Source of the DNA: a bacterium | GTDB taxonomy: Bacteria; Desulfobacterota; Binatia; HRBIN30; CADEER01 | Reading direction: 5' to 3' | Length of the DNA: 64,000 nt | Assembly: GCA_031401035.1 (NCBI GenBank) | Contig: JANNRA010000112.1 | Location: 2,628-66,627, forward strand | Shown here: positions 41,825 through 47,036 of the stretch, in pieces | Position numbering within the stretch: position 1 is the first letter of the stretch | Layout of the letters: each line of letters opens with the position of its first letter | Translations under genes and position numbers: made by a program | Notes under the pieces: model-generated | Databases searched by the model: none | The model's input: only the letters and a program-made list of their open reading frames with translations | Told to the model about the DNA's origin: nothing

Positions 41825-42997
41825 ATGCCGACCTCGTACCCCGTAACGATCCCCGCCGCCGCCCCGGCCGTTTGCCCGCGCCGCCTGCTCGACCAGGTGC
41901 GCGACGCCGTGCGCGTGCGGCACTACAGCTACCGCACCGAACAGGCCTACGTCGGCTGGATCCGGCGCTTCGTGCTGTTCCACGACAAGCGGCATCCGGC
42001 CGAGATGGGCGCCGACGAGATCCGCCGCTTCCTCACCGCTCTCGCCGTGCAGCGGCACGTCAGCGCCTCGACGCAGAATCAGGCGCTGGCCGGGCTGCGA
42101 TTCCTCCACCGCGAGGTACTCGGGCGCGACCCGGGATGGATCGACGACGTGGTGCGTGCCAAGCGGCCGGAGCGCCTGCCGATCGTGCTGACGCGCGGCG
42201 AGATCGGGCGCCTGTTCGCACACCTCGATGGCGCGACGTGGATTCTCGCTGCGCTGCTCTACGGCGGTGGGCTACGCCTCATGGAGGGCCTGCGGCTGCG
42301 CGTCCACGACCTCGACTTCGAGCGCGGCGAGATTCTCATCCGACACGGCAAGGGCGGCAGGGACCGCGTCAGCGTGCTGCCGACGATTGCCGCGGCGCCG
42401 CTCACCGACCACCTCGACCATGTGCGGACGCGCCACGCCGCCGACCGTGCCGCCGGGTTGGGTATGGTCCGGCTACCGGACGCGCTGGCGCGTAAGTATC
42501 CCAACGCGGCCGGGGAGTGGGGCTGGCAGTGGGTGTTTCCGGCGGCCCGCATCTGCACCGACCCGCGCTTCGGCCCTCCGACCCGCTACCATCTGCACGA
42601 GTCCGCCGTGCAGAAGGCCGTGCATGGCGCCGCCCGTCGCGCCGGTCTCGCGAAGCCCGTCGGCCCGCACACCCTGCGCCACTGCTTCGCTACCCACCTG
42701 CTCGAGGACGGCTACGACATCCGCACCGTCCAGGAACTGCTCGGCCACCGGGACGTGAAGACCACGATGATCTACACCCACGTGCTGAATCGCGGCGGCC
42801 GCGCCGTCGCCAGCCCCGCCGACCGACTCTGCACTTCGCCCGTTATGCCGCCAGCCCCGGCGGCTATGCCCTCTCCGGTGCCACCTGCGATGGGCCTGCG
42901 TAAACCGTTGGACGGGAATGGAAACGGCCAGTATCCTCCGCCCATCTCGCATCCCGTTATCGCGTCGCCCCCACGCGTGGGTCGTCGGAATCGTTAG
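41825..42997 (+). CDS. intI: integron integrase IntI (tyrosine recombinase with the IntI-specific additional domain)
   Basis: ATG 5 nt after ACGGAGGG and 17 bp after the dnaE2 stop. N-terminal [38 protein letters not shown]. IntI-specific patch [24 protein letters not shown]. Catalytic residues R...[19 protein letters not shown]. There is a 55-aa Pro-rich C-terminal extension. Confidence 0.9.
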
Positions 42998-43018
42998 TCC
43001 GGATAAATGTAGTTAGCC
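42993..43018 (+). other. attI core with direct repeats GTTAGTCCGGATA and GTTAGCCGGATA; the recombination point is G(43012)|TT
   Basis: The first cassette begins TTAGCC at 43013. The attC1 inverse core GGCTAAC is the reverse complement of GTTAGCC. Confidence 0.7.
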
Positions 43019-43022
43019 GGAT

Positions 43023-43415
43023 ATGAAACGAGACGAGAAGACCTTGGCAGGATCCGATCTGTCTCCCATCGCAAAGGTCGTGCTTGGGCTGGCGCTCGGC
43101 GTGCCACTAACCTTCTCGTACGCAGCCCTATCGCTGGGCGGCGACACGGCCACGTGGTTGTCCAAGCTCCAGCGTCTGGTCCCCATTGCAGGCGTCGTCG
43201 CGTCGGCGGCCGTCGCTGCACTCTTCTGGAAGCGCGTTCCTGCGCTGCGGTTCGCGCCCGTCGCGTACGCTGTCCCTTTGGCCCTTTCCGTCACCGTCGA
43301 CACTGTGCAAGTAGACCTGCGAACGGTTGTGGAGGGTATTGCTGCCGGGTTGATCATCGGGTTCGGGATCATGTTCGCCATCTGGATCGAGACCAAGGAT
43401 GCGGCGACCGGCTAA
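43023..43415 (+). CDS. cassette 1: hypothetical membrane protein (130 aa, about 4 transmembrane helices)
   Basis: MKRDEKTLAGSDLSPIAKVVLGLALGVPL... Its stop TAA lies inside the attC1 inverse core. Confidence 0.7.
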   Translation: MKRDEKTLAGSDLSPIAKVVLGLALGVPLTFSYAALSLGGDTATWLSKLQRLVPIAGVVASAAVAALFWKRVPALRFAPVAYAVPLALSVTVDTVQVDLRTVVEGIAAGLIIGFGIMFAIWIETKDAATG

Positions 43416-43508
43416 CATGGCGCTGCAGCCGACGCGGGCCACGAGGCCGAACGAGCAACGGGAGCCCGCGCGTGTCGGCCCGCGCGGCTGAGCGCCAAGC
43501 CGTTATCC
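43410..43508 (+). other. attC1 (99 bp): R'' GGCTAAC, R' GTTATCC
   Basis: Inner repeats GCAGCCGACGCGGGCC and GGCCCGCGCGGCTG. R'' is complementary to the cassette 1 opening TTAGCC. Confidence 0.8.
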
Positions 43509-43514
43509 AGACAG

Positions 43515-43856
43515 ATGAAGCTACCCGGGGCAGGTGCGGCGACGATCGATCCAGCGAAGGTCCGGGACTATCTGCTCTCCGAGACACATCCAGTGGGGCG
43601 TTTCAAAGCCTCGTTCTTCGCCAGCCTTGGCTATACGCCGGCCCGGTGGGACCTTCTCCGAAGCGATCTTCACGCGCTGGCCCTGCAGGAAGAGGCCGCG
43701 ACGGGCCTACGAAGTCCGTATGGCCAGAAATTCGAGGTCCGTGGTACCCTCTCCGGGCCGAATGGGCGAAGCGCATCGGTGGCGACGGTCTGGATCATTT
43801 TACAGGGCGAGAGTTCGCCACGTTTTGTAACGGCATTTCCGGGAGTAAAGACATGA
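43515..43856 (+). CDS. cassette 2, gene A: uncharacterized 113-aa protein, putative partner of the DUF4926 gene
   Basis: MKLPGAGAATIDPAKVRDYLLSETHPVGRFKASFF... Its stop overlaps the next ATG (ATGA). Confidence 0.6.
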   Translation: MKLPGAGAATIDPAKVRDYLLSETHPVGRFKASFFASLGYTPARWDLLRSDLHALALQEEAATGLRSPYGQKFEVRGTLSGPNGRSASVATVWIILQGESSPRFVTAFPGVKT

Positions 43857-45071: not shown

Positions 45072-45074
45072 GGG

Positions 45075-45164
45075 GCCGAACAAGGCGATCGACCCGCCCG
45101 GCCTGAGCGGCATCGCTCGCCGCGCAGCAGCCTGCGCCGGCGGGTCATCGCCAGCGCGTTAGGC
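45075..45164 (+). other. attC4 (90 bp): R'' GCCGAAC, R' GTTAGGC (canonical)
   Basis: R'' is complementary to the cassette 4 opening TTCGGC at 44564. R' is GTTAGGC at 45158-45164. Confidence 0.8.
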
Positions 45165-45200
45165 CGCTATCCCGCACCATCACCTCGCGGTGACCAGACG

Positions 45201-46949
45201 ATGAAGATGACAATGAGAGCACTGGCTTGCGCGCTGCTGACCGGAGCTATGGCGACCGCCGTCACGGCGCAGGAGGAGCGCGGTGCGATCACCGTCTTCA
45301 TTGCGAAGAAGATCGTCACCATGGATCCGACTCGGCCCACAGCCACAGCGGTCGCCGTCCGCAATGGCACCATTCTTGGCGTAGGTTCGCTCAAGGACCT
45401 TGCGCCCTGGCTCACGACGGCCAAGTACACCGTCAACGAAGAATTCAAGGAGCGGGTGCTGATGCCGGGCTTCATCGACCCGCATATGCACCCGATGCTC
45501 GCAGCCATCCAGTTCGGCACGACATGGATCACGCCCGAGCCGTGGGATGTGATGGGTGCAAAGATCCCCGCCACCATTGGACACGAAGCGTACCTGAGCG
45601 CCTTGAAGGCAGCGTTTGCCGCTGCCCCAAAGGCCGAGCCGATGTTCATCACATGGGGCTACAACCAGATGTTCCACGGTGACATGTCGCGTGCGCAACT
45701 GGATACCATCTCCAGCACCTATCCCATTTTCGTCTGGCACCGCTCGGCGCATGAGGCGTACTTCAATACGCCGATGCTCAAGTACCTGGAAGGTAAGGGA
45801 GTCACCGAAGCAGTGGTCAAAGGCAATCCTCAGATCAACTGGCAGAAGGGATACTTCTTCGAAGACGGCTTGTTCAAGGTTGCCGTACCTGCATTAGCCA
45901 ACTACCTGCTGGCACCCGCGCGCGTGGACATCGGCTATGCCAAAGCGCGCGATTACCTGAACTTCAACGGCATCACCACCGTAGCCGACATGAATACCGG
46001 CGGCGTCAGTTGGGACTTGGAGGTTGGAGCCCTGAAGCGCACATTTGATCGCAAGGACTCGCCGGTGCGCGTACGCCTGACCCCAGACGCCGTGGCGCTG
46101 GCCGCCGCCATGAAGAGCGCGGATGCGGCGTTTGCCTTCATTGGTAGAGCCGGTGAGAAGAACACTCGACACATCTTCACAAACGGGGCGATGAAGCTGT
46201 TTGCTGACGGGGCGATGTTCTCTCAACTGATGCAGCTATCGCCCCCTGGCTACATCGATGGGCATCAGGGTGCCTGGATCACGCAGCCCGCGCCGTTCGA
46301 GGAAGCCGCGCGCCGCTATTGGAATGCGGGCTATCAGATACATGTTCACACGAACGGTGACCACGGCGCGACGATGGTGCTCGACGTTCTCGAGAAACTC
46401 AAGGACGAAAAACCCCGAGCTGATCACCGCTTCACGATCGAACACTATGGCTATGCCACCGATGGCGTCAGTCGCAGGGTTGCGTTGCTCGGGGCGCTGG
46501 TCTCGGCTAATCCCTTCTACTTGTACGACCTCGGCGACAAATACGCCGAAGTGGGTTTGGGCGATGATCGAGCTGCGCGGATCACGCCGCTCGGCGGGCT
46601 CGCCCGTCGTGGAGTTCCTGTCGCGCTGCATTCGGACTTTGCGATGGCGCCTGCCGCGCCGCTCTTGCTTGCGTGGACGGCAATCACCCGCGAGACCCAG
46701 TCCGGCAAGGTGTTCGGACCCGAAGAGCGTTTGACGATGGATCAGGCCATGAAGGCGATCACCATCGACGCGGCCTACATCCTCCACCTGGAGGATCGCC
46801 TCGGCAGCATCGAGGCCGGAAAGCTGGCGGATTTCACCGTCCTCGATCAGGACCCCTACGCGGTCGGCGCGGCTGGGCTGCGCAACATCAAGGTCTGGGG
46901 CACGGTGTTTGAGGCCGCATCGCATCCCGCCAAAGCAAGCGCACCCTAA
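45201..46949 (+). CDS. cassette 5: secreted amidohydrolase-family (Amidohydro_3-like) metal-dependent hydrolase, 582 aa
   Basis: Signal peptide MKMTMRALACALLTGAMATAVTAQE. Motifs include PGFIDPHMHP, an HxH metal site, and later H..D motifs (HVHTNGDHG, HSDF). Confidence 0.75.
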   Translation: MKMTMRALACALLTGAMATAVTAQEERGAITVFIAKKIVTMDPTRPTATAVAVRNGTILGVGSLKDLAPWLTTAKYTVNEEFKERVLMPGFIDPHMHPMLAAIQFGTTWITPEPWDVMGAKIPATIGHEAYLSALKAAFAAAPKAEPMFITWGYNQMFHGDMSRAQLDTISSTYPIFVWHRSAHEAYFNTPMLKYLEGKGVTEAVVKGNPQINWQKGYFFEDGLFKVAVPALANYLLAPARVDIGYAKARDYLNFNGITTVADMNTGGVSWDLEVGALKRTFDRKDSPVRVRLTPDAVALAAAMKSADAAFAFIGRAGEKNTRHIFTNGAMKLFADGAMFSQLMQLSPPGYIDGHQGAWITQPAPFEEAARRYWNAGYQIHVHTNGDHGATMVLDVLEKLKDEKPRADHRFTIEHYGYATDGVSRRVALLGALVSANPFYLYDLGDKYAEVGLGDDRAARITPLGGLARRGVPVALHSDFAMAPAAPLLLAWTAITRETQSGKVFGPEERLTMDQAMKAITIDAAYILHLEDRLGSIEAGKLADFTVLDQDPYAVGAAGLRNIKVWGTVFEAASHPAKASAP

Positions 46950-46976
46950 ACAGATGCTGTTCGATCCCTTGAAGCG

Positions 46977-47036
46977 GCCTAACAACGGCATGCAGCGGAC
47001 GACGCTTCGCGTCGCCGCTGATGCCGGGCGTTGGCC
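46977..47036 (+). other. attC5 (60 bp): R'' GCCTAAC, R' GTTGGCC; last recognisable attC
   Basis: R'' is complementary to the cassette 5 opening TTAGGC at 45159. Inner repeats GCAGCGGACGACG and CGTCGCCGCTG. Confidence 0.75.

Follow-up and report, generated by a model that had tools for sequence, protein, structure and literature searches.

The integrase IntI binds attI in double-stranded form and attC as a folded bottom strand. Its cleavage point falls between the A and the C of the AAC on the bottom strand (G|TT on the top strand). IntI inserts cassettes, in circular form, at attI and removes them again through attC x attC recombination. The gene set imuA-imuB-dnaE2 is said to have been described as an "adaptive mutagenesis cassette" by Erill et al. 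in 2006. The ImuABC mutasome has been reviewed (PMC3901139, PMC10421592). In class 1 integrons and the Vibrio cholerae superintegron, a LexA box overlaps Pint (Guerin et al. 2009; Cambray et al. 2011, PMC3108266). The inverted intI layout has been in the literature since the report on Treponema denticola (PMC4909258; PMC4889954), the reverse integron of strain ATCC 35405 being that of Coleman et al. 2004, as cited in PMC4909258. An "inverted integron-integrase group" was later named by Cury et al. 2016 and reported to be paraphyletic (PMC4889954).

The 64-kb stretch of DNA analyzed here (the window; Table 1) contains a sedentary chromosomal integron that is intact and belongs to the reverse (inverted-integrase) type, and we regard its identity as an integron as nearly certain. 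intI and all cassette ORFs lie on the plus strand, the array is downstream of the 3' end of intI, and the strand-specific scores of the attC covariance model R2 (see below) agree with this layout. The first-pass annotation had proposed a complete chromosomal integron with co-directional intI; every element passed its own test, and the proposed coordinates hold. Co-directional intI is not rare here: 23 of the 47 fetched related loci with detectable attC sites share it. In a neighbor-joining tree built without reference sequences of the Treponema, Chlorobium, or Planctomycetes inverted group, the window IntI belongs to a clade of 73 leaves, which includes 22 of the 23 reverse loci and no classical ones. 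The reverse type itself is already known and is ordinary among the relatives of this locus. What appears to be new is the architecture, namely, an integron fused to a mutasome operon.

As in Treponema denticola-type reverse integrons, intI is co-directional with the cassette ORFs and the attC top strands and has attI on its 3' side. Also shared with reverse integrons is a sedentary chromosomal array of mostly uncharacterized cassettes together with toxin-antitoxin cassettes. Unlike the Treponema denticola type, the window intI is not free-standing but closes the series imuA-imuB-dnaE2-intI, IntI has a 55-aa C-terminal extension with which attI and the candidate Pc overlap, and the host belongs to a Binatia-like lineage. 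Judged from the closest named homologues, it is probably a Candidatus Binatia bacterium.

Table 1. Features of the mutasome genes, integrase, and cassette array (window coordinates)
Feature	Coordinates	Strand	Basis or remark
Conserved 20-nt element GGCGAAAATTAGGCGAAAAC, direct repeat GAAA-N7-GAAA	35799-35818	+	8 nt before imuA start
imuA, RecA-fold mutasome subunit	35826-36566	+	Pfam RecA, E 1.9e-14
imuB, Y-family polymerase-like mutasome subunit	36636-38111	+	Pfam IMS, E 1.3e-20
Small PD-(D/E)XK (PDDEXK_3) gene between imuB and dnaE2	38141-38554	+	PF13366, 140 bits
dnaE2 (imuC), error-prone DNA polymerase	38532-41807	+	NF004225
dnaE2-intI junction, 17 nt, with Shine-Dalgarno GGAGG (41816-41820)	41808-41824	+	Sequence itself
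intI, integron integrase, 390 aa	41825-42997	+	TIGR02249 match
Candidate Pc, TTGGAC-N18-TATCCT (equivalently TGGACG-N17-TATCCT)	42908-42937	+	Inside intI 3' end
attI	about 42955-43018	+	Conservation among relatives; overlaps last 43 nt of intI
Cassette 1: 130-aa predicted membrane protein (43023-43415) + attC1	43013-43502	+	
attC1 (99 nt)	43410-43508	+	R2, 53.8 bits
Cassette 2: DUF6883 (43515-43856) + DUF4926 (43856-44077) + attC2	43503-44148	+	Pfam
attC2 (57 nt)	44098-44154	+	R2, 56.5 bits
Cassette 3: 100-aa predicted membrane protein (44170-44472) + attC3	44149-44563	+	
attC3 (64 nt)	44506-44569	+	R2, 68.8 bits, E 1.2e-14
Cassette 4: HicA-like toxin (44594-44863), HicB-like antitoxin (44853-45071), attC4	44564-45158	+	
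attC4 (90 nt)	45075-45164	+	R2, 47.9 bits
Cassette 5: secreted Amidohydro_3 enzyme (45201-46949) + attC5	45159-47030	+	PF07969, E 7.1e-58
attC5 (60 nt)	46977-47036	+	R2, 65.1 bits
5'-truncated GST gene remnant	47021-47359	+	GST_C_6 match only

In the same-strand series imuA-imuB-dnaE2-intI, intI comes fourth, preceded by a Shine-Dalgarno sequence of its own. The dnaE2 product matches the NF004225 model "error-prone DNA polymerase" over positions 5 to 1037 of 1047 (1260.5 bits; cutoff, 939), imuB is 78% identical to its homologue in the related locus L002, and imuA has homologues at the equivalent place in L002, L161, and L168. The first three genes have the order and strand of the adaptive mutagenesis cassette, with a conserved element directly upstream of imuA, the usual place of the LexA operator. 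They depart from that cassette in being followed, 14 to 44 nt past dnaE2, by a fourth gene, intI, and then by a cassette array, and in having small PDDEXK_3 and 23S_rRNA_IVP genes nested in the operon. The PDDEXK_3 insert is also present in L161 and L163; in the window, it is flanked by a 29-nt inverted repeat (38113-38141 and 38518-38546; 97% complementary). We found no description of the imuA-imuB-dnaE2-intI layout in the literature. The first-pass annotation had overlooked the mutasome genes upstream of intI, which we consider the most interesting feature of the locus.

The four-gene order recurs in eight independent contigs, all named ones being Binatia, with IntI identities of 65 to 81% depending on the alignment. 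In seven of eight related contigs, the dnaE2-intI junction is 14 to 44 nt long with a GGAG-type Shine-Dalgarno sequence, and such a sequence precedes intI in the window, L002, L161 to L164, and L168; the L161 gap measures 79 nt to the called start and about 22 nt to a likely upstream GTG. It is from this gene spacing and conservation that we infer co-transcription. Promoter and terminator prediction between imuA and cassette 1, the dnaE2-intI junction included, returned none. Because the genome has a GC content of 73%, sigma-70 consensus scans are uninformative, and dnaE2 could carry an internal promoter in its 3' end.

The core of the 20-nt element upstream of imuA is retained in all four loci that cover the region (the window, L002, L161, and L168), at 7 to 10 nt from the annotated imuA start, while the intergenic DNA around it cannot be aligned and the upstream genes differ among loci. 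It is unique in the window (one match versus 0.07 expected) and is a candidate promoter or operator of imuA-imuB-dnaE2-intI. Its reverse complement, TTTC-N7-TTTC, resembles the alphaproteobacterial-type LexA box, GTTC-N7-GTTC; the LexA motif of the host may differ. None of the motifs CTG-N10-CAG, GTTC-N7-GTTC, and GAAC-N4-GTTC occurs within the 330 nt upstream of intI, and no lexA gene was found within the window. The proposed outcome, integrase expression tied to the DNA-damage response, is that of SOS-regulated integrons (class 1 and Vibrio cholerae). Unlike in those systems, whose CTG-N10-CAG box in a divergent intI promoter is missing here, the coupling would come via membership of a damage-inducible operon.

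Linkage of intI to SOS genes extends beyond the closest relatives of the window. Among reverse-clade loci with at least 1 kb of upstream sequence, lexA, imuA-imuB, or dnaE2 lies directly upstream on the same strand in 14 to 15 of 45, versus 0 of 44 classical-clade loci, a proportion inflated by the window's own clade because loci were gathered by similarity to the window IntI. The 14 to 15 linked loci perhaps represent four to five independent events. The linkage is also patchy, as close reverse integrons have a PPDK, amidase, sigma-54 activator, helicase, or opposite-strand gene upstream.

The integron could be real and its adjacency to dnaE2 devoid of regulatory meaning, with the intI promoter within the 3' end of dnaE2 and the conserved order reflecting mere common descent in one Binatia lineage. 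This reading, which we consider rather unlikely, would accommodate the clustering of 7 to 8 linked contigs in one IntI subclade, the lack of linkage in near relatives (L166, L167, L087, and L084), and the unreliability of promoter prediction at this GC content. However, the short junctions carry a Shine-Dalgarno sequence only and leave no intergenic room for a promoter, and in L168 the four genes stay in order although the chromosomal neighborhood is different. Moreover, fusions that are analogous but not the same occur in separate IntI subclades: other reverse integrons show lexA-intI, lexA-imuA-imuB-intI (55-nt gap), or a 32%-identical dnaE-like gene followed by intI. L014 has lexA in front and intI after imuB, where dnaE2 would be expected. 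A canonical CTG-N10-CAG box is present in the lexA promoter of three of four lexA-intI loci. In the lexA-intI loci, a palindrome-rich spacer of 160 to 300 nt between the genes could terminate transcription. Since SOS genes make up about 0.1% of a genome, their repeated fusion to intI is hard to explain by descent alone. Judging from these sequence features, we lean toward co-transcription of intI under DNA-damage control.

The integrase itself matches the TIGR02249 model "integron integrase" over its full length (positions 1 to 315 of 315; 439.7 bits; cutoff, 265) and aligns end to end with VchIntIA (PDB entry 2A3V; E 6.7e-82; residues 22 to 335). The alignment includes the IntI-specific additional domain around patch III, bearing out the IntI hallmarks and insertion that had been claimed for this protein. 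Catalytic residues R151, K176, H282, R285, H308, and Y317 are all present and are invariant or at least 90% conserved in a clade alignment of 14 relatives.

For the attC sites, model R2 was built from 67 sites at 31 other loci and contains no window sequence, although its training sites were themselves picked out by a window-derived model, R1. Over the 64-kb window, this externally trained model recognized exactly the five palindromes (57 to 99 bp) to which an attC architecture had been ascribed, at the proposed coordinates (47.9 to 68.8 bits; E 1.6e-9 to 1.2e-14; all on the plus strand). Nothing else in the window exceeded 22 bits, the runners-up being noise (≤14 bits) and the opposite strands of those five sites (≤21.5 bits). 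A check for extrahelical bases, also suggested by the first-pass annotation, was positive: the bottom (minus) strands of all five sites fold as hairpins whose 3' arm bears single-base bulges (Z-scores, -2.5 to -7.7). In four sites, the bulged bases are T and C; for attC4, one bulged G appears in the MFE fold, and a second was inferred by eye only, beyond that fold. Across eight sites (window plus L161), 93.8% of cells are paired and 14 of 24 pairs show compensatory changes, with 0 of 500 shuffles as high. The recombinogenic strand of every attC is the minus strand of the window. In all five cassettes, R'' is complementary at 7 of 7 positions to the R box that precedes the cassette (versus 4 to 7 of 7 for its own R'), including R'' of attC1 against the attI R box GTTAGCC. 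This shifted complementarity, in which R'' pairs with the first 6 nt of its own cassette, is the signature of IntI-mediated insertion.

The attI site, previously named without coordinates, was located at the 3' end of intI, with boxes GTTATCG (42955), GTTAGTC (42993), GGATAA (43002), and the R box GTTAGCC (43012). The crossover falls at G|TT, 43012|43013, in an alignment with related loci: five relatives can be aligned as far as ...GGATAAWTGTAG|TT and diverge directly after it (GTAG|TT). That homology of related contigs breaks exactly at this point suggests population-level cassette variation. The nearby TTGGAC-N18-TATCCT is a candidate for the cassette promoter Pc. It is kept with identical spacing in the window and L161 to L164 (TTGGAC-N18-TATNNT) despite the rare codons that it imposes (TTG, 4.9% of Leu codons; TAT, 10.3% of Tyr codons). 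A consensus promoter scan called no Pc, as the element falls below the scanner threshold.

The five cassettes span 43013 to 47030. The cassette 1 protein has no match in Pfam or PADLOC, and the cassette 2 proteins match DUF6883 (E 9.1e-31) and DUF4926 (E 4.2e-17). In cassette 4, the HicB-like match exceeds the Pfam cutoff (42 bits versus 27) and the HicA match falls just short (26.4 versus 27); homologues (59 to 71% at the amino acid level) occur in the L035 cassette array and beside an attC-like site in L108. The GST remnant corresponds to positions 149 to 236 of a 238-aa GST model and marks the distal array end. Cassettes had been described as lower in GC than the flanks, which is correct, but the figures given (58 to 60% versus roughly 70%) were not; we measured 60 to 65% for cassettes (array, 62.2%) and 71 to 73% for flanks. 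Variation of cassette content at a related locus was also found. L161, which is syntenic with the window across the left flank (MFS-imuA-imuB-PDDEXK_3-dnaE2-intI), has an IntI 78 to 79% identical to that of the window and the same platform and attC type (R2, 58 to 67 bits), and its cassettes are unrelated.

These observations bear on whether the integron is a fossil, with a frozen array and an IntI that has lost the ability to recombine cassettes. The array is short, its distal end abuts a truncated GST gene, and integrase inactivation is reported for many chromosomal integrons from soil and freshwater (Cambray et al. 2011, PMC3108266). Nevertheless, we judge this highly improbable here: intI has a full-length ORF with every catalytic residue, the R'' complementarity to the upstream R box is undecayed in every cassette, L161 has entirely different cassettes at a conserved attI, and related contigs break exactly at the crossover. 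That there is no integron at all, but a XerC/D-like recombinase with REP elements or terminators between small genes, is next to impossible; hairpins are common in GC-rich genomes and R1 gave about 130 weak matches (<20 bits) across the window, but this reading is refuted by the family scores (XerC and XerD models, 137 to 148 bits versus cutoffs of about 330; IntI model, 440 versus 265), by the R2 sites (only five >45 bits with an external model, strand specific and with conserved R''/R' boxes, the same model picking out attC arrays beside intI in 47 other loci), and by the shifted R'' complementarity.

Taken as a whole, a reverse integron whose intI is co-transcribed with the mutasome under DNA-damage control is probably the best explanation of the locus. 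Under this explanation, intI would be transcribed together with the ImuA-ImuB-DnaE2 mutasome genes from a promoter/operator at or near the conserved 20-mer, and one DNA-damage signal would turn on both error-prone synthesis and cassette shuffling. The cassettes would owe their expression to read-through from the mutasome transcript as well as to the candidate Pc. If this is true, an intI gene within a mutasome operon could couple gene shuffling to DNA-damage stress.

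The stretch at 41825-47036 is almost certainly an integron, and its description in the first-pass annotation as a complete chromosomal integron with intI reading in the direction of the cassettes was borne out, with all parts present. The ORF at 41825-42997 (+ strand), identified there as IntI, encodes a 390-amino-acid protein for which the NCBIfam integron-integrase model TIGR02249 gives a full-length match at 439.7 bits (cutoff, 265). Identification as XerC or XerD was rejected, as both models score far below their own cutoffs. The protein aligned with the Vibrio cholerae integron integrase VchIntIA (PDB 2A3V) over residues 22 to 335 (E 6.7e-82), and the 24-residue segment singled out earlier as IntI specific lies inside this alignment. 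R151, K176, H282, R285, H308, and Y317 are all present and are invariant or nearly so in 14 relatives. The window IntI also has a 55-amino-acid C-terminal extension, which VchIntIA lacks, and the part of intI encoding it is the part overlapped by attI. The best named homologues of IntI, as of the ABC-F protein, are from "Candidatus Binatia."

Rfam has no attC family, and it gave only one match close to the locus, a hairpin hitting a miRNA model below threshold; thus, the attC covariance models were home-built. A MAFFT alignment of the five full-length window sites was unusable because the loops are variable. The first model, R1, was built from four of the sites with loops trimmed and attC4 dropped. 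Across 165 independently fetched loci, R1 found site arrays adjoining intI in 47, with the sites on a single side and strand of intI in 46 of these. Its score for attC4 was just 17.9 bits (E 0.02), and because the model was this narrow, it was replaced by an externally trained model, R2. Training of R2 used 67 attC sites from 31 loci, located in arrays beside IntI genes of many phyla and including no window sequence. With filters off, R2 recognized all five proposed attC sites where they had been placed (47.9 to 68.8 bits; E 1.6e-9 to 1.2e-14; all + strand) and scored the rest of the 64 kb at ≤21.5 bits, a test that is not fully independent, since a window-derived model had been used to locate the training sites. 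On a recombinogenic attC bottom strand, extrahelical bases are expected on the 3' arm, and the − strands of all five candidates fold into hairpins with single-base bulges on that arm. Among eight sites (those of the window and of L161), 93.8% of cells pair, with compensatory changes in 14 of 24 pairs. None of 500 shuffles reached this value, and slid registers paired at only 25 to 43%.

IntI recombines the folded attC bottom strand with attI at G|TT. The R'' heptamer of every attC is complementary at 7/7 positions to the R box directly upstream of its own cassette, while only 4 to 7 of 7 positions match R' at the 3' end of the same attC. This pairing with the upstream box is the footprint of insertion by G|TT cleavage. 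Cassette 1 has GTTAGCC (43012-43018) as this box, 15 nt past the intI stop codon. When the 3' ends of intI from the window and four relatives (L161 to L164) were aligned, all shared ...CGTTAGTCYGGATAAWTGTAG and diverged right after GTT. The attI boundaries follow from this end of homology among the five platforms and from the position of the R box. By established integron biology, IntI would insert cassettes at 43012|43013 and excise them between attC sites. The contig of one relative (L001/L165) ends exactly at the attI crossover, with ...GTAGTTAG, and several others (also L002 and L163) end at or within a few hundred bases of it. Such ends are consistent with assemblies interrupted by cassettes that vary within the sampled populations.

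Features of the mutasome-integron locus (window positions)
Feature	Position	Strand	Description
imuA	35826-36566	+	In the string directly upstream of intI; same strand as intI
imuB	36636-38111	+	Same strand as intI
dnaE2	38532-41807	+	NF004225, 1260 bits
attI	~42955-43018	+	Two upstream GTTA boxes, L-like GGATAA, R box; covers last 43 nt of intI
Cassette 1	43013-43502	+	Small predicted membrane protein
attC1	43410-43508	+	Imperfect palindrome
Cassette 2	43503-44148	+	DUF6883/DUF4926 gene pair
attC2	44098-44154	+	Imperfect palindrome
Cassette 3	44149-44563	+	Small predicted membrane protein
attC3	44506-44569	+	Imperfect palindrome
Cassette 4	44564-45158	+	HicA/HicB
attC4	45075-45164	+	Imperfect palindrome
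Cassette 5	45159-47030	+	Secreted Amidohydro_3 enzyme
attC5	46977-47036	+	Imperfect palindrome

A reduced cassette GC content of 58 to 60% had been reported earlier; the array is indeed lower than its flanks (62.2% versus 71 to 73%), the range given being slightly too low. PADLOC returned no match for any cassette protein. Comparison with a related genome, suggested as a check on cassette content, showed that L161 (GCA_019637795.1) carries the same platform. Its IntI is 78 to 79% identical, its left flank is syntenic, and its three attC sites are of the window's type, but its cassettes are unrelated. For the HicA/HicB cassette (44594-45071), homologues with 59 to 71% amino acid identity occur among the cassettes of L035 (a Terriglobia MAG; 13830-14260) and beside an attC-like site on L108 (a soil metagenome contig; 2-196). 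Thus, this cassette is common to different phyla. At the distal end, an ORF starting inside attC5 (47021-47359) encodes only the C-terminal domain of a glutathione S-transferase (GST; positions 149 to 236 of a 238-amino-acid model); therefore, a 5'-truncated GST gene abuts the array. The truncation could be a deletion or the scar of secondary-site recombination.

Because intI and the cassettes are codirectional, the integron is of the reverse type, a known kind (PMC4909258; PMC4889954). The layout noted in the first-pass annotation is therefore real, and it is common among relatives rather than rare. The 47 relatives' loci with detectable attC sites comprise 23 reverse, 23 classical (divergent intI), and 1 mixed locus. 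In a neighbor-joining tree of 156 IntI sequences, calculated without support values or a Treponema reference, 22 of the 23 reverse loci fall, together with the window IntI, in one 73-leaf clade that has no classical locus.

The earlier sequence-only description missed the upstream context of intI, a mutasome gene string. Between the dnaE2 stop codon and the intI ATG are 17 nt, which include GGAGG. A consensus scan for sigma-70 promoters and terminators from imuA through cassette 1 predicted none, with nothing above shuffle expectation. As far as the contigs reach, the order imuA-imuB-dnaE2-intI recurs in seven relatives (L001/L165, L002, L161 to L164, and L168), with dnaE2-intI gaps of 14 to 44 nt; in L168, the chromosomal neighborhood is different. 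In all four loci that cover the region, GCGAAAATTAGGCGAA lies 7 to 10 nt before the annotated imuA start, within otherwise unalignable DNA. This element is a direct repeat with a period of 11 and occurs once in the window. The reverse complement of the 20-mer, TTTC-N7-TTTC, resembles the alphaproteobacterial-type LexA box, GTTC-N7-GTTC. No lexA gene was found in the 64-kb window, and none of the known LexA box types occurs within 330 nt upstream of intI.

Several other elements were observed in this region. An MFS transporter gene (34240-35592) is separated from imuA by a long GC-rich palindromic region (35640-35750), which gave a sub-threshold chance match to a miRNA model. This region is probably the MFS gene terminator, which would imply a separate promoter for the imuA operon. 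A PDDEXK_3 (GxxExxY-type) gene of 137 amino acids lies between imuB and dnaE2 (38113-38554), bracketed by a 29-nt inverted repeat (97% complementary; 38113-38141 and 38518-38546) whose right arm overlaps the dnaE2 start. L161 and L163 have this gene at the same place, whereas L168 lacks it, and it looks like a small mobile insertion. Within dnaE2, three relatives carry ∼470 extra nt (L163, 3607-4074; L002, 9020-9496; L161, 8969-9439; at window DnaE2 residues 908 to 927) that encode a 23S_rRNA_IVP-type four-helix protein in the +1 frame, the DnaE2 frame staying open throughout. The window dnaE2 does not have this insert.

We propose a regulated promoter at ∼35800 from which the mutasome operon is transcribed, with intI as its final gene. 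Integrase levels would in that case track the DNA damage response with no LexA box needed at intI, and the transcript would read on into the cassette array. Judged from sequence, such cotranscription and damage control are somewhat favored. A TTGGAC-N18-TATNNT motif (42908-42937) may serve as the cassette promoter (Pc); it is kept across the window and L161 to L164 despite its use of rare codons (TTG, 4.9% of Leu; TAT, 10.3% of Tyr).

SOS genes also adjoin intI in other subclades of the reverse-integron clade. The order lexA-intI occurs in four loci (L009, L102, L109, and L122), and in all of these except L102 the lexA promoter has a canonical CTG-N10-CAG box between its −35 and −10 hexamers. 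Two further loci combine lexA with imuA-imuB upstream of intI, as lexA-imuA-imuB-intI with an imuB-intI gap of 55 nt (L014) and as lexA...imuA-imuB...intI (L019); in L124, a distantly related dnaE-like gene precedes intI. The fusion forms seen are dnaE2-intI, lexA-intI, and lexA-imuA-imuB-intI. An SOS gene lies directly upstream on the same strand in 14 to 15 of the 45 reverse-clade loci that have ≥1 kb of sequence before intI, versus 0 of 44 in the classical clade; the reverse-clade count is inflated because sampling centered on the window's own clade. That count is a range because the "lexA" of L004 is doubtful (weak N-terminal match only, without Pfam support). The upstream genes of other reverse integrons were also considered as hidden repair genes; this was rejected, as they are metabolic or regulatory. 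Since these remaining loci have unrelated upstream genes, SOS linkage is recurrent and not universal.

Other arrangements were noted among these loci. In L167, a reverse integron (IntI 72% identical), the same-strand gene 86 nt before intI encodes a DEAD/ResIII helicase (8025-9914), which may be another DNA metabolism partner. In L019 (3148-8143), an attC-like site (5765-5849, +, 26.9 bits) and several small + strand ORFs precede imuA-imuB and then intI; the mutasome genes may lie between cassette-like units and the integrase. Dense GTTCAA/TTGAAC repeat palindromes flank lexA in L009, L019, L102, L109, and L122 and fill the lexA-intI spacer (160 to 300 nt) where the two genes adjoin. They could represent REP-like elements or attenuators.

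In the view accepted since 2009, a LexA box in the promoter of intI ties integron activity to stress; here, by contrast, the candidate link is membership of intI in a mutasome operon. Cambray et al. 2011 (PMC3108266) reported that soil and freshwater chromosomal integrons mostly have no LexA box and that other mechanisms must exist, leaving the control of such integrons open. The mutasome-intI architecture is a candidate for such a mechanism. No report of intI inside an imuABC or lexA operon was found in the full-text-searchable literature, from which most subscription journals are absent; thus, the novelty of the fusion is provisional. The integron and its reverse layout are of known kinds, while fusion to an SOS mutasome operon, paralleled in other lineages, is provisionally a new architecture.

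As an integron, the locus offers a well-resolved case in an uncultured and little-studied lineage, with base-level placement of attI, and alone would be routine. Its significance rests on the operon context, which could matter. The joint reading, a damage-inducible "evolvability operon" here (imuA-imuB-dnaE2-intI and, by read-through, the first cassettes) and SOS-operon capture of intI in reverse integrons generally, is one we advance tentatively, at slightly less than even likelihood. If true, the operon would activate point mutagenesis along with the shuffling and expression of cassettes. SOS-operon capture may be a stress control route for reverse integrons outside the Beta- and Gammaproteobacteria that operates without a LexA box at the intI promoter (Pint), and the reverse orientation may persist because it leaves the 5' side of intI free for such fusions. 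Fusion of intI to a LexA-controlled mutasome operon or to lexA would represent a second, independent solution to stress control, one that recurs in several lineages and makes functional sense of the reverse orientation.
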